Shown: positions 27,373-46,129, counted from the stretch's first letter. The stretch: 64,000 bases of DNA from Escherichia coli (GCF_044324785.1 NZ_CP172127.1); one strand, 5' to 3'. Program-made: numbers and translations. Notes: generated by a model not told the origin, from the letters alone.

Positions 27373-27440
27373 AAGCTCAGCTCAGCAGATTCACCCGCAT
27401 TTGCCCAACATTCATAAATCTCACAGAGGACATTCTGACC

Positions 27441-27677
27441 ATGTTGACCTCAATGACAGGTCACGACAGCGTATTGCTGCGTGCCGACGATCCCCTGATC
27501 GACATGAACTACATCACCAGCTTCACTGGTATGACCGACAAATGGTTTTACAAGCTGATCAGTGAAGGCCATTTCCCTAAACCCATCAAACTGGGGCGCA
27601 GCAGCCGCTGGTACAAAAGTGAAGTGGAGCAGTGGATGCAGCAACGAATCGAGGCATCACGAGGGGCAGCAGCATGA
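27441..27677 (+). CDS. alpA: AlpA-family phage/island regulatory protein (excisionase-like DNA-binding)
   Basis: 78 aa; …NYITSFTGMTDKWFYKLISEGHFPKPIKLGRSSRWYKSEVEQWM… typical AlpA helix-turn-helix. Confidence 0.8.
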   Translation: MLTSMTGHDSVLLRADDPLIDMNYITSFTGMTDKWFYKLISEGHFPKPIKLGRSSRWYKSEVEQWMQQRIEASRGAAA

Positions 27678-27877
27678 AACGTGTTGTAATGCCGGTACGC
27701 TGGCAATGTGCAAAATACCAGCGTTGGTATTGTGGAAATCAGCCCTGTCCCTGGTGCTGGCGACCTGCTGCCCCCGTCTGTCATTCCTCGTTCTTCGCTG
27801 TAACAGGCATCGTACCGGTCTCGGCGTGCTTTCCTGCGTACCGACACCGGTTCAGCAACATTCAAGGGGATCAAATC

Positions 27878-28426
27878 GTGCAAATAACCGAAACCGTACT
27901 TTCAGAGCCGGTGGAAATCCGGCGTTTTATTCAGCAGGCGGTGGATCACTGGCCGCGTCTGCTGGCCGTCCACTTCACACTCCATTCGGCAGAAGGAAAC
28001 ATCAACGGACAACAGATTCATGCATTCTGTACTTCCTTTTACCGACAGGTGCACGAGCGTATTACTGAACGTAATCACACGGCCAGTCCAGCACCACCGG
28101 TGGTATTACGCTGGTTGCGGGAACAACATGGAGGAGCAACAATGCGATGCCTGTTGCTGCTCAGCCAGACGAGCATTTGCCATCCACGGGTCAGTGCCAC
28201 GGTTGATGAAGAATGTTCGCAACGGGTGGATTTATTGCAACAGACATGGCGGGTGATAAGTGCTGACGGACAATGCCGGGTGGAAAGGTGTTTTCAGGCT
28301 GCCCGGGGTGATACATCCGGCCAGTATATTGCGTTAAAAACAGTTGCATTGTCTCTGGGGTTACCGGTTGTGACCGGTATTACCCATCGCCCGGTACAGC
28401 GCTGTACATTGATTACAGCTCAGTGA
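27878..28426 (+). CDS. Hypothetical protein (182 aa from GTG start with AGGGGA ribosome-binding site)
   Basis: The track ORF 27632..28426 overlaps alpA; a GTG at 27878 preceded by aagggga is a more plausible start. Confidence 0.4.
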   Translation: MQITETVLSEPVEIRRFIQQAVDHWPRLLAVHFTLHSAEGNINGQQIHAFCTSFYRQVHERITERNHTASPAPPVVLRWLREQHGGATMRCLLLLSQTSICHPRVSATVDEECSQRVDLLQQTWRVISADGQCRVERCFQAARGDTSGQYIALKTVALSLGLPVVTGITHRPVQRCTLITAQ

Positions 28427-28443
28427 ACAGCGCTGTTGTGCAG

Positions 28444-28746
28444 TCAACGAGGTTTTCTGTCTTTTCGTCGGTCATTCAGCATCATTAAACGGGTCTCTGC
28501 CTCTTTCTGTTCCTGTGGTGTCACTTCCCCGCACGGCTGACCGTTCAGGTTGTAACGGGCGCCACCTGCTATTAACGCACGGTAATAGCGCGGAGACTGC
28601 ACATAAGACGCCACTGCTGCATGTAATGTACCAGCGCCAAACGCCAGTTCTCGGATGGCGATATCCTGTATCAGGTCGTCAGGTATCCCCACTTTAAGTG
28701 GTTTTGTTTTTTTCCCGGTTGAATGACTCAGGCCAGAGTTCCACAA
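28444..28746 (-). CDS. Hypothetical small protein (100 aa)
   Basis: ORF only; possibly one gene with the upstream ORF 28761..28955 split by a frameshift. Confidence 0.3.
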   Translation of the reverse strand: MWNSGLSHSTGKKTKPLKVGIPDDLIQDIAIRELAFGAGTLHAAVASYVQSPRYYRALIAGGARYNLNGQPCGEVTPQEQKEAETRLMMLNDRRKDRKPR

Positions 28747-29295
28747 GACGAATAATGCGCTTACGGTTTTTGCTCTGGCGTTTTGTCATGTCGCCACGGT
28801 GTTTTATCAGCAGGTTTCTGTTTATCGTTCAACTGTGGTATCTGGTCACCGGCCTTCATTTTGTATGCTGTGTCCGTTTTATTCTGCAGCGGCGTTGCCG
28901 GTGATTTACTGAAAATACCCTGCGGTTTACGGTTAATGGTCAGAGTTACCATCAATTTTGTTACCTCGCGCTGTCAATGGAAGTAGTACCTCATCCGATA
29001 TCTGAAAATGTTTTCCGGTGGATGTTACAGCGAATTTCATGTAAGACATGTTGTTGTCGGTATTGTTCAGTACTGTGCGTTGTGAGCGTATTCGTTATCA
29101 GACAGAGGGGCAGGGAACAAATGGCGTGTGAAGCAATCAGCAGGTAATATTAATGGCAGGACCAGCAGGTTCTTTAAACAAACGAACATGCTGTAATTGA
29201 TATTTTGCTTATTGTATTTTCTTTTTAGTTATTAAATTAATTTATTTACGAAAAATTTTCTGCAGATACAGGATGGGAATTCAGTGGATTTGCCC

Positions 29296-30201
29296 CTATA
29301 TTTCCAGACACCTGTTATCACTTAACCCATTACTGGCCTGCTGCCGCAGATATTCCCGTGGCGAGCGATAACCCAGTGCACTATGCGGATGCCATTCGTT
29401 ATAATGCTCGAACGCCTCTGCAAGGTTCTTTGCTGCCGTTAACCCGTCTGGTTTAGGCATGATACTGATGTAGTCACGCTTTATCGTTTTCACGAAGCTC
29501 TCTGCTATGCCGTTACTCTCCGGACTCCGCACCGCCGTGTTCTTCGGTTCAAGCCCCAACATCCGGGCAAACTGCCGTGTTTCATTAGCCCGGTAGCATG
29601 AACCATTATCCGTCAGCCACTCTACTGGAGACGCCGGAAGCTCGTTGCCGAAGCGGCGTTCCACCGCTCCCAGCATGACGTCCTGTACTGTTTCACTGTT
29701 GAAGCCGCCCGTAGTGACCGCCCAGTGCAGTGCCTCACGGTCACAGCAGTCCAGCGCGAACGTGACTCGCAGTTTTTCTCCGTTATCACAGCGGAACTCG
29801 AACCCGTCAGAGCACCATCGTTGATTGCTTTCTTTCACGGCCACTTTGCCAGTATGTGCCCGTTTCGATGGCGGTACAGCGGTTTTTCGCTCAAGCAACA
29901 GCGCATTCTGGCGCATGATCCGGTAAACACGTTTGGCATTGATCGCAGGCATACCATCAAGTTCGGCCTGTCTGCGAAGCAGCGCCCATACCCGACGATA
30001 ACCATACGTGGGCAGCTCTCCGATAACATGGTGTATACGGAGAAGCACATCCGTATCATCTGAGTGACGGCTGCGGCGACCATCTTTCCAGTCATCGGTT
30101 CGTCTGAGAATTACGTGCAACTGCGCACGCGACACCCGGAGACAACGGCTGACTAAGCTTACTCCCCATCCCCGGGCAATAAGGGCGCGTGCGCTATCCA
30201 C
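29296..30201 (-). CDS. insD: IS2 transposase InsD (orfB)
   Basis: 301 aa with integrase-core motifs; recognised as IS2 InsD. Confidence 0.9.
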
Positions 30202-30524
30202 TTTTTTGCCCGTCCATATTCAACGGCTTCTTTGAGGAGTTCATTTTCCATCGTTTTCTTGCCGAGCAGGCGCTGGAGTTCTTTAATCTGCTTCATGGCG
30301 GCAGCAAGTTCAGAGGCAGGAACAACCTGTTCTCCGGCGGCGACAGCAGTAAGACTTCCTTCCTGGTATTGCTTACGCCAGAGAAATAACTGGCTGGCTG
30401 CTACACCATGTTGCCGGGCAACGAGGGAGACCGTCATCCCCGGTTCAAAGCTCTGCTGAACAATTGCGATCTTTTCCTGTGTGGTACGCCGTCTGCGTTT
30501 CTCCGGTCCTAAGACATCAATCAT
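30159..30524 (-). CDS. insC: IS2 InsC (orfA)
   Basis: 121 aa from [40 protein letters not shown]…; overlaps insD in the usual -1 frameshift arrangement. Confidence 0.9.
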
Positions 30525-30615
30525 CTGCTCTCCAATGACTAGTCTAAAAACTAGTATTAAGACTATCACTTATTTAAGTGATATTGGTTGTCTGGAGATT
30601 CAGGGGGCCAGTCTA

Positions 30616-30940
30616 TTCGGCAGCACTGTTGCCCTGTATCGAACAGGCCAGAGAGGATGTCCGTACCCTGCGTCATCTGCAGCTTCTGCACCAGAACCGG
30701 TGAATATCACTCACCACGCTTCATTACCCTGACGCCAGCCTGAATACGGCTGGCGTTTTCGTTTATAAACCAAAAGGAAAAATGATGATGTCAGATACCA
30801 CACTCTCCCGCCCGGAGGTGGTCAGCGGGCATACGGACGTTATCTATTCCACCTCAGTCTGCCACATTCTGGCTGTACGAAAGAGTACACTGTTGCCAAT
30901 CGACACAATTATCCGGCATCAAGTGAGCGATATCAGTTAA
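30616..30940 (+). pseudogene. Inverted partial duplicate of the module end: 3' fragment of the yeeW-like gene plus truncated 5' part of the DUF4942-like gene
   Basis: 30616..30780 is near-identical to the reverse complement of about 16880..17050; 30782 ATG gives MMMSDTTLSRPEVVSGHTDVIYSTSVCHILAVRKSTLL… then stops at 30938. Confidence 0.7.
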
Positions 30941-31340
30941 CCGATATAGATGGGGAAGATGCTTTTATCCGGATTGGATCTATCGCGATGGTGCGAGTAC
31001 CACTTGATGCAATGGAGCCTGTCGAGGCAGATGACGAGTAACAGAGCTCGGTATCTCAATCAGGACCTGATTGTCCTGGTTCGATGCCGAAAACCAGTGA
31101 TTTTTCGTGTTGGTATCTGTGTTGGTATAGGATGGTGTTGTTTATTATTAACAATTTTAAATCATGAGGTTAAATCGCATGTTTGAGTCAGGCCTTCGCA
31201 TCAATATCAAAACAATCAATAAATAAGTCCTTTAACCTAGCCACGACCAATCATTGATCAACCACGAAATCCTCTCCGAAACACAGTCCCAATCCCTAAA
31301 CCCTACGCTCAACATCGAAACCCGCTTATCACCATCCCCC

Positions 31341-32210
31341 TCATCCCCTGAACACCTCCCGCCGGTGCCACGCCACAAACCCCTCCTGGGGATAGCATTC
31401 TTTCCCCATCGGCAAGGTAATCGGCTTACCATCAAAATCCCAGAACAACCTGCCAACGATGCCTCCGCCGTTCACCGCCGGCGAAACCTGGATGCGCATA
31501 TCCTCATCCAGACCAATGGATCCTTTATCAAAAGCCTTATGGTGAATCGCGCAGAGCGCCAGGCCGTTAGGGATTTCGCAGGGGCCGCCGTGCTGCTTCC
31601 ACTTGATATGGGCCGCTTCCAGGGCGACGGAGGTATTATCATGGCGCATATTGAAGCCGCAGATAGCGCACTCATAGTTATAGGCGCGCAGCACCTGCTG
31701 GCGAAAATGCGGGTCGCGCTCTTTGCGGATCTGCAGCAGATCAAACCCCATCTCTTCAGCCAGTTCTTCCTGAATACTCTCCGGAAAGTGCGCCTCGAGG
31801 ATCTGATGGGCGAGGGTATTGATCAGCTTCTTATTTCTGTTAAGTAACGCAAAATGCTGCTCATCAAAGCCGCCGGCGACGTGGCAGAGCTCCAGCTCTT
31901 TGCCGGGCGGCTGTCGGCTGCCCTGGGTTGAGCACTGTTCGCTGTTGTGTAGCTCCCAGAAGCCGTCGCCTTTCAGGCGCCAGAAGGGCATGTCCGGCCG
32001 GTACTGGCGGCGCTGCGGGCCAAAGCGTTCCAGCAGGCTATGCAGCTCATCACGTATCTCCGAGGCGTAGTCGAACATCCGCGCATGGCCGCGCTGGTAT
32101 TGCGAGAGGACGTACAGCAGCAATAGTGGTTTATGCGGCGCACGCTGTTCGCCTTTGCGCCAGATGGTGATGTTCTCGATCGCGTGTTGCAGGGTCGTGC
32201 TGGAGGGCAT
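31341..32210 (-). CDS. HNH endonuclease-domain protein, putative modification-dependent (type IV-like) restriction nuclease
   Basis: HNH core YECAICGFNMRHDNTSVALEAAHIKWKQHGGPCEIPNGLALCAIHHKAFDKG in the C-terminal half; N-terminal about 180 aa unassigned. Start taken at the second Met (MPSSTT…). Confidence 0.6.
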   Translation of the reverse strand: MPSSTTLQHAIENITIWRKGEQRAPHKPLLLLYVLSQYQRGHARMFDYASEIRDELHSLLERFGPQRRQYRPDMPFWRLKGDGFWELHNSEQCSTQGSRQPPGKELELCHVAGGFDEQHFALLNRNKKLINTLAHQILEAHFPESIQEELAEEMGFDLLQIRKERDPHFRQQVLRAYNYECAICGFNMRHDNTSVALEAAHIKWKQHGGPCEIPNGLALCAIHHKAFDKGSIGLDEDMRIQVSPAVNGGGIVGRLFWDFDGKPITLPMGKECYPQEGFVAWHRREVFRG

Positions 32211-32389
32211 AGCGTTACATTGGCAGCTAAATAAATGCGATGATGCTCGCAAAATCCTTGCCGATCAACCTACCAGATGCGGCGATTCTACGTGGATCGC
32301 GATTTAATTATCACTGCCAGTTATTTGTTCGAAAAGACCATAGCTTTCTATTTATACTCAAGCTTCGCGCCATCAGATAGCTATGTCTT

Positions 32390-33028
32390 ATGAAAAAACT
32401 ACCGGACCATTTATCCAGGGAATGCATCATCGCCGCCATTCGCGCTTACGATGCAGGCGTTGCGCATCAGTTTAAAAGCGCGCGTCTGTATGAGATCGAG
32501 TTTGAGGGGCGTCGGTATCCTTCAAAAGCCATCGTCGGGTTAGCGGCCACGCTTGCGACGGGAACGGAATTTACCCCGGCGGATTTCAGCGGGGGGATTA
32601 AATCAAAATGCGTGCGTCTGTTACTGGAGCAAGGATTTACGATCGCGTCGCAGGGCGCTGGCGATGACGAGGTTGCGCTTTTCCCCGATGAGGGGCAGAC
32701 GACCATGGAGTACGTGGAAGGGGCGGCGTTGCAGGTGGTGGTCAATCGCTATGAGCGCGACCGTCAGGCTCGTCAGGCGGCGCTTCGCCTGCATGGCTGC
32801 CAGTGTCAGGTATGCGGTCTGGATATGGCCAGCCGCTATGGCGATATCGGCCAGGGCTTTATCCATATCCACCATCTCATCCCGCTGGCCGGGATAAAGC
32901 AGGACTACCGCCTGAACCCTGAAACCGATCTGATCCCGGTATGTCCCAACTGCCATGCGATGCTGCACCGGCGAGATCCGCCGTTTACCCCCGAAGAGCT
33001 GAAGGCCCGGCTGCGCCCCACAGACTGA
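32390..33028 (+). CDS. McrA-like HNH endonuclease with a distinct N-terminal domain
   Basis: C-terminus CQCQVCGLDMASRYGDIGQGFIHIHHLIPLAGIKQDYRLNPETDLIPVCPNCHAMLHRRD parallels the E. coli McrA HNH motif (C.NCG…HHVIPLS…CPNCH..LH). Confidence 0.65.
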   Translation: MKKLPDHLSRECIIAAIRAYDAGVAHQFKSARLYEIEFEGRRYPSKAIVGLAATLATGTEFTPADFSGGIKSKCVRLLLEQGFTIASQGAGDDEVALFPDEGQTTMEYVEGAALQVVVNRYERDRQARQAALRLHGCQCQVCGLDMASRYGDIGQGFIHIHHLIPLAGIKQDYRLNPETDLIPVCPNCHAMLHRRDPPFTPEELKARLRPTD

Positions 33029-33072
33029 CATCCGACAGCGCTCGCTTTAATTACATCAAACACACCACAAAC

Positions 33073-33099
33073 CCCACGCTACCTTACCGGTAGCGTGGG
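33073..33099. terminator. Hairpin between convergent genes (HNH + / GH43 -)
   Basis: Perfect 11-bp stem CCCACGCTACC / GGTAGCGTGGG with TTACC loop; T-rich flanks are modest. Confidence 0.45.
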
Positions 33100-33110
33100 C
33101 CCACTCTCTT

Positions 33111-34790
33111 TTACTTATCCCGCGTCTCGCCAGCCTCCCAGCTGTAGCTGCCATCGGCCGCTAAGCTATCGCCCAGCTCCTGATACTCGAACTGATAAAA
33201 CTCAGCCTGGGTGCCGTACCCGGCGTAGTCTACCGCCGCCAGGCCGACGAACGCCCCGGTAAAGAACCCGCCGTAGCTCTGCAACACATAGTCATCGGAC
33301 AGCACCGCGGCATCCAGCTGGACCGGGATCTCGGTGAACGTCACGCCATCGAAGCTGTATTCATAGCTGTAGGTCTGCTTGCGGACTTTGGTCCGGAACC
33401 AGACGTATTCCACGCCGTCCGGCACCTTGATGGCGTTATCTTTCAGGTACGACGTGTATTTCCCGCGGTTATTTTCGCCGACTTCGATGACCTTGCCGTT
33501 AATTTCATTCCAGGTCAGGAAGACGAAGCTCCAGTGGCGGTCGTTATAGTAATTCGTTAACCCGGCCATCTGCTGGTAGCTGAAGGGCTCGAATTTCACC
33601 TTCACCGCGGCGTCAAAATAGAAGGCCTGCCAGCGGCGGGCAATCAGCGACAGATCATGCGTATTGGCTAACGAGCCCTGGCCGATTAAGGTTAATTTGC
33701 CGTTACCGGTGGTGCCCATTTTGGCCGTAAACGGCACCCGCAGGGTATTCCAGTTCGGGTCGAGGGCTGGCGACGTAAAGTCATCCTGCTGGCTATTATC
33801 GCTGGCGCTTTCGGTGAAGATGGCGTCTTTCGGTCCTTCGACGAAGGTTTTCCCGCCGTGACCGCCTTCAATACGCGGCCAGCCCTCGTCATCCCAGTAC
33901 ACTTTCTGGATCGCGGTTTCCCGGCCGAGGGTTGACCAGCCGCGCGGGTCGTAGATGGATTCCCCCGGGCGATTCCACGGCCGGGCGCAGAGCGAGGCGT
34001 AATACCATTCGCCTTCCGGGGTGGAGACCAGCGCGCCATGGCCCTGTTTCTGGATGTAGCTGTCCGGGGTGTCGACGTTGGTTAAGAACACGTCGCCCGG
34101 CTCGGTTTCAAAGCTGTCGGCCTCGAGGGTTTTCGACCGCGCCACCACCTCCTGGTGGGTAAACACGGTGCCGCCCTGGGCGGCAAACAGGTAGTAGTAG
34201 CCGTTCAGTTTATAGAGGTGCGGCCCCTCGACCAGCGCTACGGCGGTGCCGCGGTAGATGGTGCGCGCGGTTTCCGGCATTAACTTCAGCGTGTTGGTAT
34301 CCAGCTCCGTTAAGGTAATGCCATCGAAGGGGTGATGGTACTCCCGGTGATCCCAGGTTTGCTGGACGATATATTTCCGGCCATCGTCGTCATGGAACAG
34401 CGAGGCGTCAAACCCGACTCCGTTCAGCTTGATCGGGTCGCTCCACGGGCCCCGAATATCCTTCGCGGTGGTCAGGTAGTTGGTCATGTCTTTGAAGGCG
34501 CCTTCGGTGACCTTCACATCGGTATACACCAACCAGAATTGCCCGTCGGCCCAGGAGAGCGCCGGCGCCCAAATGCCGCCGGAGGAGGGGTTGCCCTTCA
34601 TGTCCAGCAGGGTGGTGGTGGAGAGCGGCGAAGGCAGCAGGTTCCAGTTTTTCAGGTCTTTCGACTCATGTAAACGCACGCCCGGAAACCACTCAAACGT
34701 CGAGTTGGCAATATAGTACGTATCCTCGACGCGAATAATACTGGGGTCGGCATTAAAGCCGCGTAATATCGGGTTTTGAATAAGTGACAT
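33111..34790 (-). CDS. xynB: Glycoside hydrolase family 43 beta-xylosidase / alpha-L-arabinofuranosidase
   Basis: 559 aa; N-terminal five-bladed propeller catalytic signature (…GFNADPSIIRVEDTYYIANSTFEWFPGVRLHESKDLKNW…) and C-terminal beta-sandwich typical of XynB-type enzymes. Confidence 0.8.
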   Translation of the reverse strand: MSLIQNPILRGFNADPSIIRVEDTYYIANSTFEWFPGVRLHESKDLKNWNLLPSPLSTTTLLDMKGNPSSGGIWAPALSWADGQFWLVYTDVKVTEGAFKDMTNYLTTAKDIRGPWSDPIKLNGVGFDASLFHDDDGRKYIVQQTWDHREYHHPFDGITLTELDTNTLKLMPETARTIYRGTAVALVEGPHLYKLNGYYYLFAAQGGTVFTHQEVVARSKTLEADSFETEPGDVFLTNVDTPDSYIQKQGHGALVSTPEGEWYYASLCARPWNRPGESIYDPRGWSTLGRETAIQKVYWDDEGWPRIEGGHGGKTFVEGPKDAIFTESASDNSQQDDFTSPALDPNWNTLRVPFTAKMGTTGNGKLTLIGQGSLANTHDLSLIARRWQAFYFDAAVKVKFEPFSYQQMAGLTNYYNDRHWSFVFLTWNEINGKVIEVGENNRGKYTSYLKDNAIKVPDGVEYVWFRTKVRKQTYSYEYSFDGVTFTEIPVQLDAAVLSDDYVLQSYGGFFTGAFVGLAAVDYAGYGTQAEFYQFEYQELGDSLAADGSYSWEAGETRDK

Positions 34791-34848
34791 TTCATTACAC
34801 CTTTTAAAATGGAAAGTGACGAATCGGTCTGATTTATAATTTTTTTAA

Positions 34849-36342
34849 CTACACGCGGATCTCATCCAGCTGACGGTTGATGTCGGTAACATGTTTATCG
34901 GAGATCGGATAAACCTGGATAATCACCATCGAAATAGCGGCCAGCGCGATCGGGATCCACACCGCGGTCATAATGATCCCGTCGATGGCGCTGGCGCTCT
35001 GCACGGCGCCGCTTTCATTAAAGCCATACACCGCCAGCAGCCACAGCGGGATCGCGCCGCCGATGGTGAAGCCGATCTTGAAGAAGAGTCCCATAATGGC
35101 ATTGATAATGGCGGCATTGCGTTTGCCAGATTTTAATTCGCCGTACGCGATGACTTCCGGTACCAGCGCCCACATAAAGCCGGTGGCGGAGGTTAAGCCC
35201 CACTGTTTAATAAAGGTGGCGATGTAGGCCAGCCACAGGGCGTCGTGCATCCCTTCGCGGGACCAGACGTAGGTCAGCAGTTCGCCGACGATAAACATGG
35301 CGAGGAACAGATGGAAGAAGCCTTTTTTACCAAAGATTTTTTTCAGTTTCGGCCAGAAAATCGGGAAGGCGATGCCGGGAATAGACGCGACGAGACCCAC
35401 CGCGCCCATCCATTCGGAGTGGCCGACGACGTACTGGTTGAAGAAGCCGTTAACAGTGTTCATGAAGAACATGAAGGTAAAGGCCAGCATAAAGAACATG
35501 CCCAGAATAACCAGCGGGCGGTTATGTCGGAGCTCGTGGAAAAGGTCGGTGGTTTTGACGTTGGCGGTCTGCTCGGCGGTCGCGACAACGCGTTCTTTGG
35601 TGAATTTATAACAGATAAACAGAGCCACCGCGCCGATGATCATATAGATGGCGTACACGCCAAACCAGGCGTAATTTGCCGACGGATCGGTATAATTCCC
35701 CAGATTCAGCTCAAGGCCAAAAAAGCCGGTGTCTTTCAGGCTGCGATCTTTCGGCGCCGCCATCTGCACAAACATCGGGAACAGGGTATAGACCAGCAGG
35801 TTGGCGCTGTTGGCCAGCATCATGCGGGTACTGGTCAGTTTATCGATCGATTCCGGGTCGCGGGTCAGCGACGCATTCAGCGAGCCATAGGGAATATTGA
35901 CTAAGGAATAAACCAGGTCCAGCGCCAGATAAATAATAAAGGCGAAAGCCACCGAACCTTTCACTCCGGGGATGGGCGCGAACAGTAATGCCGAGAGGAT
36001 CACCAGCGGCACGCCGGCTCGTAACAGCCACGGACGATATTTCCCTGCCTTCGAGGTTCGTTTATCCACGTAGGTGCCGACCATCGGATCCCAAAACACG
36101 TTAATTATGCGGACAAAAAGAAAAATAAAGCCTGCCGTTGCCGTGCTGATGGTATTTACCGTCAGCATATGCAAAGCCAGAAAACCCCCAATTGTGCCGA
36201 AAACCAGGTTTTGCGCAAAGTCGCCCATGCCATAACCAATTCGTTCTCCACGGGTTAATTTATGATATTCATCATGCCGACTGTGCATTATGTTTTTACT
36301 CATTCTAAGCAGACTCCGGTTTGTTTTGTGTAGGTGAAACAC
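34849..36342 (-). CDS. Glycoside-pentoside-hexuronide (GPH) family cation symporter, probable xyloside transporter
   Basis: Up to 497 aa (start uncertain); motif GERIGYGMGDFAQN and 12-TM profile; operon with the GH43 gene. Confidence 0.8.
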   Translation of the reverse strand: MFHLHKTNRSLLRMSKNIMHSRHDEYHKLTRGERIGYGMGDFAQNLVFGTIGGFLALHMLTVNTISTATAGFIFLFVRIINVFWDPMVGTYVDKRTSKAGKYRPWLLRAGVPLVILSALLFAPIPGVKGSVAFAFIIYLALDLVYSLVNIPYGSLNASLTRDPESIDKLTSTRMMLANSANLLVYTLFPMFVQMAAPKDRSLKDTGFFGLELNLGNYTDPSANYAWFGVYAIYMIIGAVALFICYKFTKERVVATAEQTANVKTTDLFHELRHNRPLVILGMFFMLAFTFMFFMNTVNGFFNQYVVGHSEWMGAVGLVASIPGIAFPIFWPKLKKIFGKKGFFHLFLAMFIVGELLTYVWSREGMHDALWLAYIATFIKQWGLTSATGFMWALVPEVIAYGELKSGKRNAAIINAIMGLFFKIGFTIGGAIPLWLLAVYGFNESGAVQSASAIDGIIMTAVWIPIALAAISMVIIQVYPISDKHVTDINRQLDEIRV

Positions 36343-36714
36343 TTTCTGACACAGTTGACATGGAAGAATCTATTACGTTTTTAAATTAAGTAATTATGTT
36401 TTTTTACTTCTGTGATCCTCGAAGCAAAGACCTGTATCACTTGCGTTGAGCCGCCATCCGCCGCTAATTTTTTGGCAGACAGGCAATGTGACAAAACCGG
36501 CATTTTAATTCGCTATGCCCACCTGAATTCCCCAGGAAGTGTACTCTATACGCGCGCGAAGCGAGATATTTAAAATAGTTTTATTTGCGAGATGGCTCAC
36601 ATTTGAGCATTTTCTCAATCGCTGAGTGAAATAACGTAATTGAGCAACCGACGATGAGAATACACGATGTGTCACAGTTGTTAATTTTCGGCTTCCTCAA
36701 TTTCGGAGTTCATC

Positions 36715-38034
<1,320 letters not shown>

Positions 38035-38364
38035 ATTTGGCTGACATGCCCCTGCGGGGGCATGTATTCCGCCGTGTGCCCGCTGCCGGGAAATAGCGTT
38101 TATTTGTTCGTGTTGTATTTATGCTGTCTGTGCCGAAAGGCTATCTGTTTGACTGTCTATAGAGGAACAATCCGCCGCGCGGATGGTTCTGCCATTGTGC
38201 CACCTTTTTAATATCAGTGAGGGAGGGCGAGTAGCGATAATTGTGTAATGCCTCTGTGACCGTACAAAATAAAAAATAACTTGTTCTGATGATAGCGACA
38301 TATTCTGTCAGCTCAGAATAGGCTGGTTATTGTCTGAATAAAATTAACCTATATTGAGAAACTC

Positions 38365-39747
38365 ATGACAATGATAAAAAAACTTCCATTAACCATGGCG
38401 GTTATCGCCGCGTTTTTTCCGCTTACCTCTGTAATGGCGCAAGAATTTACTCAGGAACAGATCGACGCCATCGTCGCCAAAGCCGTTGATAAAGCGCTGG
38501 CCGACCGCCAGGCGAAAATTGACGCCGCGGCCGACAAAAAGGTCGACGTCATTACCAACCCACAGACCACCGCCGCCTCGCCGGATATGGCCATTCCGTT
38601 CGGCCTCAAGTTCAGCGGCTATGCCCGCTATGGCGCCCATTTCCAGACCGGCGACCAGAAATATGTCGGCGTCGACGGCTCCTATAACGGCGCCTCGGCG
38701 ATCGGCCGTCTGGGCAACGAAAGCAACGGCGGCGAATTCCAGATCAGCAAAGCCTTCAAAAGCGCGCAGGGGGCTATCTGGGATCTCAACGTCATGTTCG
38801 ACCACTGGAGCGACGAGGTTAACCTGAAGAAGGCCTACGTCGGCGTCACCAACGTGCTGGAATCCAATCCCAACGCCTATATCTGGGCCGGCCGCGACTT
38901 CCACCAGCGTCCGCAACAGGGGATCAACGACTACTTCTGGATGAACCACGACGGCCAGGGCGCCGGGGTGAAGAACTTTGATATCGGCGGCGTGCAGTTC
39001 GACGTGGCGGCGGTGTCGCAGGTGAAATCCTGTAGCCCGGAAGTGATGGCCGACGAGACCAACCCGTCGCGTATCACCTGTACCGGCAGCTCCGACACCG
39101 GGGACAACGGCCACTACGCGCTGACCACCAAAACCCACAACATCAAGGCCGGGCCGATCGACGTCGAGGTGTACGCCAACTACGGCTTTGACTCGAAGGC
39201 GGTGGACAGCGACGCGCGTCTCGAAGCCTGGCAGGGCGGCCTGGTGCTGAGCCACACCAACGACAGCGGGGTGAACAAGGTGATCCTGCGCTACTCCGAT
39301 AACTCGGATAACAGCGTCTACAACAAAACCGACGACCTGACCACGGTCTACGCTAGCTTCGAGGGCAGCCATAAGTTCACCCAGCAGGCGCAGGTGGAAT
39401 ATCTGCTGGCCTTCCACGACTACGACAACGGCAAAGATAATACCGACAACCGCAAAAACTACGGTGCCATCGTGCGGCCGATGTACTTCTGGAACGACGT
39501 GCACTCCACCTGGCTGGAAGCGGGCTACCAGCGCGTGGACTACGACCAGGGCGGGGATAACCACGGCTGGAAGCTGACGCTGTCGCAGAACATCGCCATC
39601 GGCATGGGGCCGGAGTTCCGTCCGATGCTGCGCTTCTACGTGACCGGCGGTCAGGTGGACAACGAGCATACCGCTAAGGTCAACGGCACCAAAGACCAGC
39701 AGCTGGATTCGCTGAACGTCGGCGGGATGTTTGAGGCGTGGTTCTGA
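38365..39747 (+). CDS. Carbohydrate-selective outer-membrane porin (LamB/ScrY family) with N-terminal coiled-coil extension
   Basis: 460 aa; signal peptide, ScrY-like N-terminal helical extension, C-terminal aromatic end (…MFEAWF). Confidence 0.65.
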   Translation: MTMIKKLPLTMAVIAAFFPLTSVMAQEFTQEQIDAIVAKAVDKALADRQAKIDAAADKKVDVITNPQTTAASPDMAIPFGLKFSGYARYGAHFQTGDQKYVGVDGSYNGASAIGRLGNESNGGEFQISKAFKSAQGAIWDLNVMFDHWSDEVNLKKAYVGVTNVLESNPNAYIWAGRDFHQRPQQGINDYFWMNHDGQGAGVKNFDIGGVQFDVAAVSQVKSCSPEVMADETNPSRITCTGSSDTGDNGHYALTTKTHNIKAGPIDVEVYANYGFDSKAVDSDARLEAWQGGLVLSHTNDSGVNKVILRYSDNSDNSVYNKTDDLTTVYASFEGSHKFTQQAQVEYLLAFHDYDNGKDNTDNRKNYGAIVRPMYFWNDVHSTWLEAGYQRVDYDQGGDNHGWKLTLSQNIAIGMGPEFRPMLRFYVTGGQVDNEHTAKVNGTKDQQLDSLNVGGMFEAWF

Positions 39748-39819
39748 TGCGATAGCGTTGTCGAAGGAGCGTTCCCGGCTGGCGCTACGCTTAGCCGGGC
39801 TACGACTGGTGCGCTCCAT

Positions 39820-40045
39820 TTATGCCGGATGGCGGCATACATGCCTTATCCGGCCTACGTTTCTGAGGAGGCCTGCGGGATACCCCCCAGGCCCGGCAGG
39901 CGCAGCGCCGCCGGGCAGGACACTTCAAGCTCCATACCTGTGGTTGTGCCGGATGGCGGCATAAATGCCTTATCCGGCCTACGTTCCTGAGGAGGCCTGC
40001 GGGATCCCCTCCCAGGCCCGCGCAAGCGCAGCGCCGCCGGGCAGC
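39820..40045. repeat. Two tandem copies of a REP-type palindromic unit (about 95 bp each)
   Basis: …tgccggatggcggcata(c/a)atgccttatccggcctacg…gaggaggcctgcggga…caggcccg…gcgccgccgggcag appears twice (about 39823 and about 39948). Confidence 0.6.
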
Positions 40046-40059
40046 TGGCCCAGGTTCCC

Positions 40060-41019
40060 TCAGTTCACCGTCAGGCGCAGGGCAAGATCCTGCGGGTAGG
40101 GGTCAAAATAGTTCTGCGCCTGCAGGTAGCGATCCGGATACTCGGCCAGATAGTGCTTAAGCAGCGTCAGCGGCGCGAGGATCGGCAGCAGCCCGGCGCG
40201 ATAGTTGAGGATCACCTCCCGCAGCTCGCCGCGCTGGCGGCTGTTCAGCTGGTCGCGGAAATAACCCTGAATATGCATCAGCACGTTGGTGTGGTTTTTC
40301 CGAGAGGCGGGCCGCTTGAGGATCGCCATCAGCTTTTCGCGATAGACCTCGAAGAAAGCCTCCAGATCCTCCCATTCATGCAGCGAGGCGACGAAGGGGC
40401 CGATCTCGCGGTAGCCCGCCTGGTGGTGAGCCAGCAGCTGCAGCTTGTAGCGGCTGTGAAAGGCCAGCAGGCCGTGGCGGGTCAGGCCGCGGGCGCGCAG
40501 GGCGTTGAGTTCATGCAGGGCGAAGACGCGCTCGACAAAATTCTCCCGCAGCAGCGGATCGTGCAGCCGGCCATCCTCTTCCACCGGAAGCCACGGGTAG
40601 CGCGCCATCAGGGCGCCGGTAAACAGCCCCACGCCTTCCTTACGCCCGCGATTGCCTTTTTCATCATACAGCCGCACGCGCTCCATCCCGCAGATCGGCG
40701 ATTTGGCGCAGACGATAAAGCCCGACAGCTCGCCCAGGGTTGCCAGATGGGCGTTGGCGAAATCGGCCATCTTCTCCGTCACATCCTCGTGCGGGGCGTG
40801 GCTGAAGCGCATGCGGATCTCCCCGACCGGGGTCTGCACCAGCCGGAGCGCCGGGCGGGGAACGGGCAGGCCGATCGCCATCTCCGGGCAGACGGGCTTA
40901 AACGCCACCCACTGCGCGAGCTCATCCATCACAAAGCCCATACGCTTATGCCCGCCGTCGAATCGCACGGCTGAGCCGGTTAAACATCCGCTGATCCCAA
41001 TGACAGGTTGCGTGTTCAT
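40060..41019 (-). CDS. YbgA-family protein (DUF523 plus DUF1722)
   Basis: 319 aa; N-terminus MNTQPVIGISGCLTGSAVRFDGGHK… is typical of the family. Confidence 0.65.
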   Translation of the reverse strand: MNTQPVIGISGCLTGSAVRFDGGHKRMGFVMDELAQWVAFKPVCPEMAIGLPVPRPALRLVQTPVGEIRMRFSHAPHEDVTEKMADFANAHLATLGELSGFIVCAKSPICGMERVRLYDEKGNRGRKEGVGLFTGALMARYPWLPVEEDGRLHDPLLRENFVERVFALHELNALRARGLTRHGLLAFHSRYKLQLLAHHQAGYREIGPFVASLHEWEDLEAFFEVYREKLMAILKRPASRKNHTNVLMHIQGYFRDQLNSRQRGELREVILNYRAGLLPILAPLTLLKHYLAEYPDRYLQAQNYFDPYPQDLALRLTVN

Positions 41020-41567
41020 GGCGCTGTCCTCTCTTCTGCTGTGGTTCGGGTAAAGAAAAGGGTCACGGTGGCCACCGTAATGCCGAATTTCTTCATCTCG
41101 GTTTTGTTAAACAAATGGCTGCCGTCCTGCAGGAACATCCAGTCGTCAAAGTGCAGCAGCCACCGGCTGCCGCTGGCCTCGACGTTCATGCTGTAGCGCC
41201 AGTGAAAGGCATTGCCTGCCGCCTGGCCGCTGGCCACGCCTTCGATATCCCCGGCGGTGCCCTGATAATGGTTATCGCCGGTGCGGCGAATGCGCCACAC
41301 CCGCTGCTGTTTCTCGCCATCGTCATAGACAAAGCGCTCATGGAGCGTCAGGGTGTCGCCGACGACGTCGCCATCGATCGCTACATGGAAGCGGCGCAGC
41401 TGTTTACCGCGGCGATCCTGCACCATCCCCCACGCCTCGGTTCGACCCTGAAAATAGTGGAAGATGTCGAGGGCGGGCTGCTGCTGCCGGTACTCGGTGA
41501 CCTCGATGCTGCAGCCGGCGAGCATCAGCATCAGCAGCGCCAGGCCACGGGTCAGAATGCGTTTCAT
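41016..41567 (-). CDS. Putative lipoprotein (DUF3833-like)
   Basis: 183 aa; lipobox LAGCS after signal peptide; translationally coupled to the YbgA-family gene. Confidence 0.5.
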   Translation of the reverse strand: MKRILTRGLALLMLMLAGCSIEVTEYRQQQPALDIFHYFQGRTEAWGMVQDRRGKQLRRFHVAIDGDVVGDTLTLHERFVYDDGEKQQRVWRIRRTGDNHYQGTAGDIEGVASGQAAGNAFHWRYSMNVEASGSRWLLHFDDWMFLQDGSHLFNKTEMKKFGITVATVTLFFTRTTAEERTAP

Positions 41568-41606
41568 GGTGTACCTCCGATCAACTGCTGACGCAGTTCG
41601 GGATAA

Positions 41607-43691
41607 GTGGTGCGCGGATCGAGCCAGAACTCGCTGACGCTGAGCGCAGGAGATGTGACCAACAGCGGCCGGATTCAGGGGCAGAACATTACTCTGGATG
41701 CCAGCAGCCTGACCAGCAGCGGTGCTGTTCAGAGTGCGCTGGAGTTGGCTCTGACCCTGAGTGGCGATGTTATTGCTGCCACCGGCAGAAAAATTACCGC
41801 CCTGGGCGATGCCCGCCTTACCGGGAAAGTGCTGGGTAACCAGGGATTAATCAGCGCGAAGACGCTGGAAGTGAATGGTGATTCGCTCAGCAACGGTGGC
41901 GAAATCAGTGGTGTTAACAGCCTGAATGTGACACTCAGTGGTAATCTGCAACAGCACGGTAAAATGCTGACAGGCGGTACATTAAACGTCAACGCCAGAG
42001 ACATCAGCAATAGTGGGCAGCTTCAGGGGGCGGATAACCGAATCACCGCCAGTTCGCTGACCAACTCAGGTCGTGTGCAGGGCGACAGCGGGCTGACTCT
42101 TACATTGCTGAATGCCCTGACCAACCAGACCAGCGGTGTGCTTCTCAGTCAGAACGTATCAGCGCTTTCTGCACCTGTGCTGACTAATGACGGCACCATT
42201 CAGGGCAACGGTAAAACCACGCTCAGCGCGGCAACGCAGGCCCACAACAGTGGCAAGATTCTTTCCGGCGGTGAGCTGACGTTCACCACGCCGGACTACA
42301 GTGGCAGTGGCTGGCTACAGGCCACTGACCTGCTGCTGAACGTGGCGAAGCTTGCCGGTAATGGCACTGTGATGGCGGCGAATCAGGCAACGCTCACAGG
42401 TAACAGTCTGACCAACCGTGGCCTGTTCCAGGCTGCACAACTGAACGTCAACACGCAGACCATCACCAACAGCGGCACGCTGCTGGGTAATCAGGGCCTG
42501 ACAATAAAAGGGAACAGCCTGAACAACGCCGGCGGGAAGGTGTTCAGCGGCGGTGATATGCTTGCTGAAATGGTCTCGCTCAGCGGCGCGGGCCAGCTGG
42601 TTACACTCGGTAACCTGACGCTGAAGCTCACACGTGGTTTGACCGCACAGGGCGTTATCGCCGCGAATAAACAACTCTCCGTCAGCAGCCAGGGTGATAT
42701 TACCAATGGCGCCACATTGCAGGGCAACGGTATCACGCTGAATGCTGCAGGCAGGCTGACCAACAATGGCCAGTTGACCGCCGGCAACGGCACCACGGCA
42801 CTGAGCGGCAGCGGGATTGCGATGAATGCCAGCGGCAGCCTGCAGGCAGGCGGGGACGTCAGCCTGACCAGCAGGGGAGATATCACTCTCGACGGTTTTA
42901 CCGGCACGACGGGTAGTCTGGTGTTAACGGTCGCCGGGGCAGTCATTAACACCGCACTGTTGTATGCGGGCAATAACCTCTCGCTGTTTGCCAGCACCAT
43001 CCGGAACCATCACGGCGATATGCTGGCGGGTTACAGCCTGGTGATGCAGAAAGATGTCAGTGGTGCCGCGAATGCTGAAGTGATTAATACCTCCGGGAAT
43101 ATCGAAACCACCCGCGGTGATATCACCATCAGAACCGGACATTTACTGAATCAGCGGGAGGGTATAAATGAGACAAAATCATACATTCCGGTTGAGAATG
43201 TCGCAGTACCTGATGGTGTAAATTCTGTTTCAGTCAGAGTGGGCGATTTAGGTGAAAATGGATGGGGATATTATGTGAAGTCCTGGAGCGGTACTGCCGG
43301 TGGTGGTTTTGAGGCATGGGCCGTTCCGACTGAAAAGGGAGCCACCCGGAAATTTCTGACTGGCACAACACGCGTCGATGTTGGTGCAACAGGGGGGGAT
43401 GCCAGAATTTCGGCCGGTAATAATCTGCTGATTGACGCGAACAAACTGGATAATACGGGAAGTCATCTTCTTGCCAGCGAGTTTGTCAGCCTGTCGGGTT
43501 CACAACTGAATAATCAGTCCTTCTTTGGCTATACACAGGATGAATACAATGTGTATCGCTATTACGGCAAACTGGCCATGATCCCCAACGACGGGCATCT
43601 GCAGTATGGAGATGCTTCTGCCGATGATCGCGTTACCTTTACTCTCTCCGGAGCTCCGGAATATGTCACCAGAGACACCGGTCAGGCGTAA
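41607..43691 (+). pseudogene. Internal fragment of a CdiA/FhaB-family two-partner-secretion exoprotein (beta-helical repeat region only)
   Basis: 694-aa frame with no credible start or TPS domain; repetitive motifs (…LTNSGRVQGDSGLTL…, …ITNSGTLLGNQGLTI…); the stop codon is contributed by the adjacent IS66-family end. Confidence 0.7.
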
Positions 43692-43758
43692 GCGTACAGC
43701 CTGAACCGTCTGGTCAGAATCTGACGAATTAGACAAAGTGGTGTCCACCAAATAAGTA

Positions 43759-44160
43759 GTGGGAACCAAAGTGTCAGATATGCAGAAAAATGTGACTCCC
43801 GGCAGGCGAAAAGGCTGCCCTAATTATCCTCCCGAATTTAAACAGCAGCTCGTTGCTGCCTCCTGTGAACCCGGGATATCCATCTCAAAACTTGCTCTTG
43901 AAAATGGCATTAACGCCAATCTGTTGTTCAAATGGCGACAACAATGGCGCGAGGGAAAGCTGCTATTACCTTCTTCAGAGAGCCCCCAGCTACTTCCTGT
44001 GACTCTCGATGCAGCTGCCGAACAGCCAGAATCGCTCGCAGAGGGCCCGGAAACCCTCAGTATCAGCTGTGAGGTAACGTTCCGGCACGGGACGCTCCGC
44101 TTCAATGGCAATGTCAGCGAAAAGCTCCTGACTCTGCTGATACAGGAACTGAAGCGATGA
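43759..44160 (+). CDS. IS66-family accessory protein TnpA (orfA)
   Basis: 133 aa; first of three overlapping IS66-type ORFs. Confidence 0.8.
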   Translation: MGTKVSDMQKNVTPGRRKGCPNYPPEFKQQLVAASCEPGISISKLALENGINANLLFKWRQQWREGKLLLPSSESPQLLPVTLDAAAEQPESLAEGPETLSISCEVTFRHGTLRFNGNVSEKLLTLLIQELKR

Positions 44161-44504
44161 TCCCGTTACCTTCCGGGACCAAAATTTGGCTGGTTGCCGG
44201 TATTACCGATATGAGAAATGGCTTCAACGGCCTGGCTGCGAAAGTACAGACGGCGCTGAAAGACGATCCCATGTCCGGCCATGTTTTCATTTTCCGGGGC
44301 CGCAGCGGCAGTCAGGTTAAACTGCTGTGGTCCACCGGTGACGGACTGTGCCTCCTGACCAAACGGCTGGAGCGTGGGCGCTTCGCCTGGCCGTCAGCCC
44401 GTGATGGCAAAGTGTTCCTTACACAGGCGCAGCTGGCGATGCTGCTGGAAGGTATCGACTGGCGACAGCCTAAGCGGCTGCTGACCTCCCTGACCATGCT
44501 GTAA
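44157..44504 (+). CDS. IS66-family TnpB (orfB)
   Basis: 115 aa; [28 protein letters not shown]… typical TnpB; 4-bp overlap with orfA. Confidence 0.85.
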
Positions 44505-44553
44505 ATCTCTTTATCCTGGTTGTCACAGAATAAGCCCGGTAAAATACGGGCTT

Positions 44554-46092
44554 ATGAACGACATCTCTTCTGACGACATCTTCCTGCTGAAACAGCGCCT
44601 GGCCGAACAGGAAGCGCTGATCCACGCCCTGCAGGAAAAGCTGAGCAACCGGGAGCGCGAAATAGACCATCTGCAGGCGCAGCTGGATAAACTCCGCCGG
44701 ATGAACTTCGGCAGTCGTTCCGAAAAAGTCTCCCGCCGTATCGCACACATGGAAGCCGATCTGAACCGGCTTCAGAAAGAGAGCGATACGCTGACTGGTA
44801 GGGTGTATGACCCGGCAGTACAGCGTCCGTTGCGTCAGACCCGCATCCGTAAGCCGTTCCCTGAATCACTACCCCGTGACGAAAAGCGACTGTTGCCTGC
44901 GGCGCCGTGCTGCCCGAACTGCGGCGGTTCACTGAGCTATCTGGGTGAGGATACCGCCGAACAGCTGGAGTTGATGCGTAGCGCCTTCCGGGTTATCCGG
45001 ACGGTACGGGAAAAACATGCCTGTACTCAGTGCGATGCCATCGTGCAGGCACCTGCACCTTCGCGGCCCATCGAGCGGGGTATCGCCGGACCGGAGCTGC
45101 TGGCCCGCGTGCTGACCTCGAAGTATGCAGAGCACACCCCGCTGTATCGCCAGTCAGAAATATACGGCCGGCAAGGTGTGGAGCTGAGCCGTTCACTGCT
45201 GTCGGGCTGGGTGGATGCATGCTGCCGGCTGCTGTCTCCGCTGGAAGAGGCGCTTCATGGCTATGTCATGACTGACGGCAAACTCCATGCCGATGATACC
45301 CCGGTCCAGGTACTGCTGCCGGGTAATAAGAAGACGAAGACCGGGCGGTTGTGGGCGTATGTTCGTGATGACCGCAATGCCGGGTCAGCGTTGGCACCTG
45401 CAGTGTGGTTCGCTTACAGCCCGGACAGAAAAGGCATCCATCCGCAGACTCATCTTGCTTGCTTCAGCGGTGTGCTGCAAGCGGATGCGTACGCCGGGTT
45501 CAACGAGCTGTATCGCAATGGTGGGATAACGGAAGCTGCCTGCTGGGCTCATGCCCGCCGAAAGATCCACGATGTGCACGTCCGCATCCCGTCAGCACTG
45601 ACGGAAGAAGCCCTGGAGCAGATCGGTCAGTTGTACGCCATAGAGGCGGATATAAGGGGAATGCCGGCAGAGCAGCGGCTTGCTGAACGTCAGCGAAAAA
45701 CGAAACCGCTGTTGAAATCCCTGGAAAGCTGGTTGCGTGAAAAGATGAAGACCCTGTCGCGACACTCAGAGTTGGCGAAGGCGTTCGCGTACGCACTTAA
45801 CCAGTGGCCGGCACTGACGTACTATGCGAACGATGGCTGGGTGGAAATCGACAACAACATCGCTGAAAATGCCCTGCGGGCGGTAAGTCTGGGTCGTAAA
45901 AACTTCCTGTTCTTCGGCTCTGGCCATGGTGGTGAGCGGGGAGCGCTACTGTACAGCCTGATAGGGACGTGCAAACTGAATGACGTGGATCCAGAAAGCT
46001 ACCTTCGCCATGTGCTTGGCGTCATAGCAGACTGGCCGGTCAACCGGGTCAGCGAACTGCTTCCGTGGCGCATAGCACTGCCAGCTGAATAA
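44554..46092 (+). CDS. IS66-family transposase (orfC)
   Basis: 512 aa; N-terminal leucine-zipper-like region, CxxC…CxxC zinc motif (CPNCGG…CTQCD) and DDE core. Confidence 0.9.
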
Positions 46093-46129
46093 CACATCCC
46101 CGTCAATACGGCCCTCGCTGTACGCTTAC

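Follow-up and report, generated by a model that had tools for sequence, protein, structure and literature searches.

A probable beta-xyloside utilisation cassette of Klebsiella origin in the selC island of an Escherichia coli genome, with predicted reliance on the host XylR and XylB

Described relatives and the four-gene cassette

Typical strains of Escherichia coli grow on xylose but are not known to grow on xylodextrins. The closest described system for the latter is the xynTB pair of Klebsiella oxytoca, which was reported, in a paper whose title is cited in PMC9119000, as a xylodextrin-utilisation operon functional in E. coli (Qian, Yomano, Preston, Aldrich & Ingram 2003, Appl Environ Microbiol 69:5957). 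In a 64,000-nt stretch of E. coli DNA (GCF_044324785.1, NZ_CP172127.1; hereafter the window, from whose first letter all positions are counted), a similar pair forms part of a block of four genes at 33111-39747, in which a glycoside hydrolase family 43 (GH43) xylosidase gene, xynB, and a glycoside-pentoside-hexuronide (GPH) symporter gene, xynT, lie on the minus strand, and a xylose isomerase gene, xylA2, and the gene of a LamB-family porin diverge from them on the plus strand. All four reading frames, which an earlier note made from the sequence alone had proposed, were verified by open reading frame listing and profile searches. As the pair shares with xynTB of K. oxytoca NBRC 105695 its amino acid sequence (96% identity for XynT and 91% for XynB), gene order, orientation, an operator 84 nt upstream and a ybgA-DUF3833 neighbourhood, the two are orthologous. 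Unlike K. oxytoca, the window, K. pneumoniae and Raoultella add the divergent xylA2-porin unit. An island of K. pneumoniae that carries xylA-xynT-xynB-xylR has also been described (PMC4068068), but it is a different locus with an xylR of its own.

The core xylose regulon of E. coli, xylAB and xylFGHR, offers a second point of comparison. Like the cassette, it consists of divergent operons, each with a 36-bp XylR-type operator, and has a CRP-like site; the xylA promoters align, and XylA is 83% identical. The core genes xylB and xylR and the ATP-binding cassette (ABC) transporter have no counterpart in the cassette, whose partner operon would serve oligosaccharide uptake and hydrolysis, where that of the core regulon serves monosaccharide uptake. 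Lacking xylB, xylR and an ABC transporter, the cassette would therefore depend on the host regulon and not replace it. No homologue of XylB, XylR or XylF was found in the 64-kb window by tblastn with the host proteins, and the host retains its xylBA and xylFGHR locus ~115 kb from the block, in agreement with the earlier description of a second xylA without an adjacent xylB. Native analogues are yagGH, in the CP4-6 prophage, and yicJI, which does lie beside selC as had been stated. Both consist of a GPH-family transporter and a glycosidase for xylose-containing glycosides, and YagH is also a GH43 protein with the same two domains. However, identity is low (XynB 47% to YagH; XynT 28% to YagG and 24% to YicJ), YicI, an alpha-xylosidase, belongs to a different family, yagGH is annotated as being under its own repressor, XynR, and neither system has an isomerase or a porin. 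The cassette is therefore not redundant with these distant analogues.

We interpret the block as a cassette for beta-xylosides and xylo-oligosaccharides that is native to K. pneumoniae, arrived as the middle of a 10.4-kb fragment and relies on host XylR and XylB, and we give this reading a probability of roughly 75%. With the cassette, the strain can probably make use of short fragments of xylan. These would cross the outer membrane through the LamB-family porin, be imported as oligomers by XynT acting as a GPH cation symporter, and be hydrolysed in the cytoplasm by XynB, a GH43 exo-xylosidase, to D-xylose, with some L-arabinose from substituted oligomers. The xylose would be isomerised by XylA2 together with host XylA, and the xylulose phosphorylated by host XylB from its distant locus, while intracellular xylose would activate host XylR and switch on both cassette operons together with the core xyl genes. 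The features of the cassette are as follows.

33073..33099, minus strand: terminator-like hairpin closing the xynT-xynB operon; 11-bp stem (8 G-C pairs) and T-rich tail
33111..34790, minus strand: xynB, GH43 beta-xylosidase / alpha-L-arabinofuranosidase, 559 aa; Pfam GH43 and GH43_C2
34849..36288, minus strand: xynT, glycoside-pentoside-hexuronide:cation symporter, 479 aa; TIGR00792, Pfam MFS_2
36372..36407, minus strand: XylR-type operator facing xynT; 28.8 bits, top paired score in the window
36586..36601, plus strand: putative CRP-like site, TGCGAGATGGCTCACA; one mismatch to TGTGA-N6-TCACA
36605..36640, plus strand: XylR-type operator facing xylA2; 25.9 bits, second paired score in the window
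36715..38034, plus strand: xylA2, second (class II) xylose isomerase, 439 aa; NF003998, TIGR02630
38045..38098, plus strand: two hairpins past xylA2; sequence inspection and terminator scan
38239..38364, plus strand: conserved leader/promoter region of the porin gene; kept in 10 loci of 7 genera
38365..39747, plus strand: LamB-family carbohydrate porin, 460 aa; Pfam LamB, 245.8 bits

XynB matched the five-bladed GH43 propeller domain, PF04616, with 299 bits (residues 4-305) and the C-terminal beta-sandwich domain, PF17851 (GH43_C2), with 184 bits (residues 335-537), and aligned over its full length with beta-xylosidases in the Protein Data Bank (PDB), scoring 963 bits against 9he8 and 520-580 bits against 1y7b, 3c2u, 2exh and 1yif. 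The catalytic Asp/Asp/Glu positions of GH43 enzymes (D15/D128/E187 in XynB3) are occupied by D14 (in NADPS), D128 (GFDASLF) and E188 (VEGPH), residues that 9he8 and YagH share with XynB when aligned. The terminator-like hairpin lies 12 nt past the stop codon of this gene. XynT scored 297.6 bits with TIGR00792, against a cut-off of 231.35, and fell below the cut-offs of the glucuronide, YagG and MelB equivalogs, and is thus none of those. RefSeq annotates it with 479 aa; an alternative upstream ATG at 36303, after GGAG, gives 484 aa. Its 96% identity to and synteny with K. oxytoca xynT suggest that it transports xylobiose and xylodextrins.

Over residues 1-438, XylA2 exceeded the cut-offs of both NF003998 (784.6 bits against 459) and TIGR02630 (708.6 bits against 533), and its family membership places it among the class II xylose isomerases. 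The alignment with host core XylA is gap-free, with 75.8% identity at the nucleotide level, and the active-site stretches, including DANRGD..GWDTDQF, are identical; we take these to hold the metal-binding residues. An extra isomerase without a kinase would make sense as added capacity at the reversible and often limiting first step. Of the two hairpins past xylA2, the first (38045-38064) has a G+C stem of 8 bp, and the second (38081-38098) is terminator-like, with a run of T after it.

A scan with the symporter, one genome per species, found the symporter-xylosidase pair at 87-96% amino acid identity in many genera, including Klebsiella, Raoultella, Leclercia, Phytobacter, Pantoea, Kluyvera, Citrobacter, Serratia and Kosakonia; representatives of K. 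variicola and K. quasipneumoniae were not among the genomes returned. K. pneumoniae and Raoultella show the four-gene divergent layout. In Citrobacter freundii and two Kluyvera species, xylA2 is present without a porin on that side, while in K. oxytoca and K. michiganensis ybgA-DUF3833 directly adjoins the pair. Between ybgA and xynT, K. oxytoca NBRC 105695 retains only a porin remnant, in which the start is fused to the C-terminal third (8432-8979 of that locus), and an orphan XylR operator of the xylA2 type (~9651 of that locus). This lineage has lost xylA2 and the porin, and the four-gene form is therefore probably ancestral there. Outside the enterobacteria, many Bacillota (Paenibacillus, Bacillus, Neobacillus) have proteins with 76-78% amino acid identity to the symporter, and Lactococcus hircilactis and Streptococcus thoraltensis carry a symporter and a xylosidase 78-84% identical to the enterobacterial pair. 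Such identity of xynTB across phyla is unusually high and suggests transfer.

Predicted control by XylR

The XylR operators of E. coli have been described as ~37 bp long, composed of two direct repeats and located beside the -35 element (PMC3561964). We built a 15-nt matrix from the four half-sites of the host core xylA and xylF promoters and scanned both strands of the whole window for pairs 21 bp apart. This revealed that the two best paired scores in the 64 kb fall in the 426-bp region between the divergent operons, at 36372-36407 on the minus strand (28.8 bits) and at 36605-36640 on the plus strand (25.9 bits), with the next independent score at 16.7 bits and a maximum of 19.1 bits in 20 shuffles. 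Under a similar matrix the core xyl sites score 34.6 and 33.2 bits. Both operators consist of two 15-nt direct repeats 21 bp apart and are oriented towards their own operon, so that the control region holds one XylR-type operator per operon as well as the CRP-like site. The scan also returned an XylR-like pair just upstream of yicJ (57288-57323, plus strand), the fourth-best in the window at 16.7 bits and below the shuffle maximum of 19.1 bits, which could hint at a response of yicJI to XylR or be due to chance.

The arrangement is conserved well beyond the window. In ~30 enterobacterial loci, an XylR-type site is retained 81-85 nt upstream of xynT amid sequence that is otherwise divergent, and a second, divergent site is present in the same spacer, with almost no other matches in the ~20 kb of each locus. 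In Leclercia, the divergent site faces the porin gene. The spacing between operator and ATG is 75 nt for xylA2 and 77 nt for core xylA, and ~90 nt around the xylA2 operator align with the core xylA promoter. This alignment takes in the CRP-like site at 36586-36601, which abuts the xylA2-side operator and corresponds to the equivalent element of the host core promoter. Taken together, these comparisons strongly support membership of the module in the XylR regulon.

The putative role of the CRP-like site is suggested by its position and conservation, as matches to the CRP consensus across the window were not above chance (31 versus 28.6). A scan for sigma-70 promoters returned fewer sites than shuffled sequence and none at the expected places; this is what would be expected of activator-dependent promoters, and the scan was uninformative. 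The XylR operators and the predicted dependence of the cassette on its host are additions of the present analysis, as are the assignment of the donor to K. pneumoniae and the orthology of xynTB.

Relationship to the Klebsiella pneumoniae chromosome and route of transfer

The Klebsiella origin of the block is evident from its nearest relatives. Compared by blastn with K. pneumoniae-type chromosomes, the segment 31199-41628 is 96.2-98.6% identical and has the same gene order, against only 81-87% identity for Raoultella, and the K. pneumoniae proteins are 97-99% identical and identically ordered. A search of the plasmid collection led to K. pneumoniae strain 176 (CP125156.1), whose record is classed as a plasmid at a length of 5.37 Mb and in which HNH-GH43-GPH-xylA-porin-ybgA-DUF3833 are colinear with the window at 96.5% identity. 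XylA2 is found unchanged in 5514 blocks of the assembly collection, and eight of the ten places listed are chromosomes or long contigs of 5.1-5.4 Mb that share one fixed K. pneumoniae context: a variable restriction/defence hot spot is followed by GH43-GPH, xylA2-porin and ybgA-DUF3833-DUF2878-cfa-like genes, extending as far as MlrA and a lipocalin gene. E. coli I2 and a mosaic rich in insertion sequences (IS) and Tn3 account for the other two. These comparisons point to K. pneumoniae as the donor and to its chromosome as the native home of the block. The segment and its surroundings comprise the following further features.

15879..57104, no strand: selC genomic island; tRNA-Sec, integrase, 24-nt direct repeat
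31199..41628, no strand: chromosomal fragment (10.4 kb) assigned to K. pneumoniae; blastn 96.2-98.6% identity, 56.5% GC
31341..32210, minus strand: phosphorothioated-DNA-binding restriction endonuclease; NCBIfam NF045808, 440 bits, and RefSeq annotation
32390..33028, plus strand: HNH endonuclease (ScoMcrA_N and HNH); Pfam HNH
39820..40044, no strand: tandem pair of composite palindromic units of the repetitive extragenic palindrome (REP)/bacterial interspersed mosaic element (BIME) type; repeat families D1 and D5
40060..41567, minus strand: ybgA (DUF523/DUF1722) and a DUF3833 gene; Pfam

Composition agrees with this origin. GC content is 55.0% in the block and 50.5% elsewhere in the island, and GC at third codon positions (GC3) is 0.69-0.82 in its four genes versus 0.46-0.57 in flanking core genes. 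Mean GC3 is 0.75 for the block, between the 0.56 of ten core genes of E. coli near xyl and the 0.84 of the genes that flank the block in K. pneumoniae. The GC-rich tract as a whole is 31199-41628 (56.5% GC), with the island at 49.2% and 49.6% on either side. The earlier note had taken 33111-39747 as a GC-rich transferred block with REP-type repeats and a Klebsiella- or Enterobacter-like donor. Its contrast in composition and its gene content were borne out, but the GC-rich zone and the transferred unit are larger, the latter including two restriction-type genes, ybgA and the DUF3833 gene. Klebsiella holds as the donor, narrowed to K. pneumoniae, while Enterobacter does not for this copy, and the refutation that the note had proposed, nearest homologues among E. 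coli core genes of identical composition, was not borne out. The repeats exist, but just beyond the end of the block and not within it.

Two REP units of ~125 bp each, 82-88% identical and in tandem, occupy 39820-40044, 70-300 nt past 39747, in a spacer of 66.7% GC between the convergent porin and ybgA genes. Their palindromes are of typical form, GCCGGATG...CCGGCCTAC and GCCCGGC...GCCGGGC, and in being G+C-rich, imperfectly palindromic, intergenic, placed between convergent genes and in tandem the units have the properties of REP elements. The REP-derived Rfam family naRNA4 (RF02564) scores 30.9 and 29.1 bits at the pair, below its gathering score of 59.5; a search of 31000-42000 against Rfam at E<=1 gave only these two sub-threshold REP-type matches and no XylZ-like or other RNA family. 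At the REP pair, alignment with the majority of K. pneumoniae loci is interrupted, which would fit variation in the number of units.

The genes at either end of the fragment are those found beside the block in K. pneumoniae. On the right, the order ybgA-DUF3833 is the same in all K. pneumoniae loci, where the cluster runs on into the cfa-like genes, and both genes are core neighbours brought along with the block. On the left, the HNH endonuclease gene adjoins the GH43 gene in K. pneumoniae strain 176 and ATCC 13883 as well, and the phosphorothioated-DNA-binding restriction endonuclease gene is found at the equivalent position in several K. pneumoniae loci; these two genes are hitchhiking cargo from a variable hot spot of Klebsiella. 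The restriction enzyme and the ScoMcrA_N/HNH protein (31341-33028) form a defence pair imported with the fragment, and in K. pneumoniae the site left of xynB is a hot spot at which restriction/defence genes differ by strain. On the right, all comparisons put the end of the fragment precisely at 41628, a position 63 nt inside the following Klebsiella gene.

Sequence comparison shows the window to be identical to the chromosome of E. coli ES1. In the present host, the fragment is cargo of a mosaic integrase island at selC. The island spans 41 kb between setC and tRNA-Sec in the RefSeq annotation, with the integrase gene at 55526-56710, the tRNA gene at 57010-57104 and yicJ-yicI beyond it. As is typical of integrase islands linked to tRNA genes, the integrase lies beside the tRNA gene and the 3' end of the tRNA recurs at the far boundary, as a 24-nt direct repeat (15879-15902 and 57010-57033) that bounds the island. 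The same island module and Klebsiella fragment were found at leuX in E. coli ET479 and beside gspLM/yghD in strain I2, so that the module, which runs from a GTPase gene through an IS3 element, the phosphorothioated-DNA-binding restriction enzyme, the HNH gene and the xyl block to ybgA, occupies at least three positions on E. coli chromosomes (selC, leuX and beside yghD). After one capture, the module has therefore moved with its family of integrase islands between tRNA sites. A different xynT-xynB pair, 85.4% identical in nucleotide sequence to the island copy, is carried by plasmids of mouse E. coli isolates (NZ_CP019954.1, NZ_CP054663.1, NZ_CP096903.1 and NZ_CP167128.1) and represents a second, independent route by which these genes have entered E. 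coli.

Whether the fragment passed directly from a chromosome to an E. coli island bears on the route, and the right-hand breakpoint is informative here. Many IncF-type and other large plasmids of Klebsiella, as well as two E. coli plasmids, carry porin-ybgA-DUF3833 at ~97% identity, in the order lacIZY-porin-ybgA-DUF3833, and these copies stop at exactly the nucleotide at which the island copy stops, 41628, where they abut a terminal repeat of an IS903-like (IS5-family) element. The common breakpoint suggests a junction made by an insertion sequence, and possibly a plasmid intermediate. Transfer by way of a large Klebsiella plasmid, after mobilisation by such an IS903-like element, nevertheless seems to us unlikely, if the strongest of the alternatives: the plasmid copies begin at the equivalent of 38211 and lack xynTB and xylA2, the whole 10.4 kb is on no plasmid of the collection (the apparent exception being the 5.37-Mb record CP125156.1), and the island copy has no insertion sequence at 41628.

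It could also be argued that the cassette is passive baggage in E. coli, imported beside defence genes or an island junction and of no useful expression or benefit. The fragment brings the unrelated ybgA and DUF3833 genes and the 63-nt stump of the next gene, and the cut therefore ignored function. The block is also rare, being present whole in 10 of 5426 complete E. coli genomes and in part in one more (LH50-c, where the match spans only 80% of the query at its best place, with a second place elsewhere), and one 5-Mb record has insertion sequences between xynT and xylA2. On the other hand, the four reading frames are intact and 99.9-100% identical across the ten E. coli genomes and the several insertion sites, the operators resemble E. 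coli XylR sites to about the degree that the core operators do (28.8 and 25.9 versus 34.6 and 33.2 bits), and both XylR and XylB are supplied by the host. We therefore regard the baggage explanation as improbable and favour that of a cassette working within the host regulon.

Substrates, the porin and what the cassette may mean

The predicted substrates raise a further alternative, in which the true substrates are not linear xylo-oligosaccharides but other pentosides, such as arabino-oligosaccharides, side chains of arabinoxylan or small plant or aryl beta-xylosides, and the porin serves a different sugar. The solved relatives of XynB include a xylosidase/arabinosidase (3c2u), GPH transporters of the XynT clade are annotated only generically, and the porin also occurs beside lacIZY on plasmids. 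Against this, the XylR-type operators and the co-located isomerase point to xylose as both product and inducer, the top solved matches are beta-xylosidases, and the orthologous K. oxytoca operon is termed xylodextrin-utilisation in the title cited in PMC9119000. We think it rather doubtful that other pentosides are the main substrates, with xylo-oligosaccharides the better supported choice. Finally, that the block is ancestral or core DNA of E. coli, or derives from Enterobacter, is refuted despite the distant E. coli analogues yagGH (CP4-6) and yicJI (beside selC), as just 10-11 of 5426 E. coli genomes carry it, its proteins have the low identities to YagH, YagG and YicJ given above, and the representatives labelled Enterobacter reach 87-92% amino acid identity, none with the divergent xylA2-porin layout.

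The porin is the least familiar component of the cassette. It matched the whole of PF02264 (245.8 bits, residues 83-460, profile positions 1-378 of 378), has a signal-like N-terminus ending ...SVMA|QE and finishes with the C-terminal motif ...EAWF. It is not a maltoporin LamB proper, as it scored 139 bits with NF006860, far below the cut-off of 394, and 30 bits with NF009061, whose cut-off is 765. In searches of the PDB with the single sequence and with a profile of 11 sequences at E<=10, the library being assumed to hold ScrY chains, only maltoporins were returned and no match to ScrY. ScrY is known to have an N-terminal periplasmic extension, and ~55 residues likewise lie between the signal peptide and the barrel of the present porin, part of them probably helical, including the heptad-like IDAIVAKAVDKALADRQAKIDAA. 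This extension, which recalls the architecture of ScrY in outline and no further, is its sole ScrY-like trait, and the earlier description of a ScrY-like porin thus found no backing in sequence. Overall, the protein resembles LamB/ScrY channels in its full-length Pfam LamB domain, signal peptide, EAWF end and extension before the barrel, and differs from them in being no maltoporin, in having no sequence match to ScrY and in a context of xylosides instead of maltodextrins or sucrose.

That the porin is dedicated to the cassette, as had also been suggested, is supported by its recurrent linkage to the symporter-xylosidase pair in several genera. Linkage to xynTB was found in Raoultella, Leclercia, Pantoea, Serratia, Kluyvera and Enterobacter, in varied arrangements and in seven genera in all: the porin gene lies behind the xylosidase gene in Pantoea, Serratia, Kluyvera genomosp. 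3 and one Enterobacter, and diverges from the symporter gene in Leclercia. Its leader of ~125 nt (38239-38364) is conserved in 10 loci of seven genera, whichever gene precedes it. RNAalifold predicted two hairpins in this leader, the second over the ribosome-binding site and start codon; with a covariation term of -0.66 kcal/mol and one compensatory pair, we do not claim it as a conserved RNA structure. In some genera, a single half-site-like GTGAATTATCGGAAT lies farther upstream of the porin gene, and the K. pneumoniae-type sequence is without it.

Several observations weigh against the interpretation of the block as a host-dependent xylo-oligosaccharide cassette from K. pneumoniae, most of them concerning the porin. 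It is gene neighbourhood that nominates the porin as a candidate xylo-oligosaccharide channel, and the linkage to xynTB is not absolute, as Klebsiella plasmids carry the same porin behind lacIZY, an arrangement that we read as a rearrangement junction. The paired-matrix scan of the window found no XylR-type site directly upstream of the porin gene, and the hairpins that follow xylA2 come ahead of it. An AlphaFold2 model of the porin, made from an alignment of 11 sequences (81-93% identity), had a predicted local distance difference test (pLDDT) score of 28.3 and was unusable. GH43 enzymes of the XynB type are often bifunctional, and arabinosides may matter as much as xylosides. As to the donor, the listed chromosomes were assigned to K. 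pneumoniae by the context they share with CP125156.1 and ATCC 13883.

The promotion of xylo-oligosaccharides as prebiotics assumes that Enterobacteriaceae are unable to use them. A core cassette of K. pneumoniae, captured on mobile islands by a few E. coli lineages, could widen the gut niche of these lineages, and a near-identical E. coli record is labelled strain ST38, a capturing lineage known for the carriage of carbapenemases. The locus is a clean case of modular transfer, in which uptake, hydrolysis and one catabolic enzyme would be imported while XylR, CRP and the committing kinase XylB remain those of the host, and leaving regulation and the kinase to conserved host genes may explain how the cassette would function after a move between genera. 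A literature search found no specific description of this island, nor of a xylo-oligosaccharide porin in enterobacteria, and the LamB-family porin is nominated here for specificity testing. A stronger claim, that the porin is an outer-membrane channel specific for xylo-oligosaccharides, a substrate class new to its family in enterobacteria, and that the four genes form a self-contained addition to the XylR regulon, with no regulator or kinase of their own, that lets multidrug-resistant ST38 use xylo- and arabinoxylo-oligosaccharide prebiotics, is tentative and in our judgement falls somewhat short of an even chance. In other respects, this is an ordinary though tidy horizontal transfer of routinely annotated genes that would not surprise a specialist, the core operon having been characterised in 2003, going by the title cited in PMC9119000.

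The remainder of the island (41607-43691 and 47983-53711) includes a truncated pseudogene with beta-strand repeats (adhesin- or autotransporter-like), ISEc8, and genes for a PhoX-family phosphatase, an outer-membrane protein and a phosphoethanolamine transferase. Beyond nlpA-yicS, at 7-11400, are type III secretion translocon and chaperone genes (YopB/SseC and SycD/LcrH families), and in the same region an open reading frame of >1000 aa, also unrelated to the xyl block, runs off the start of the window.

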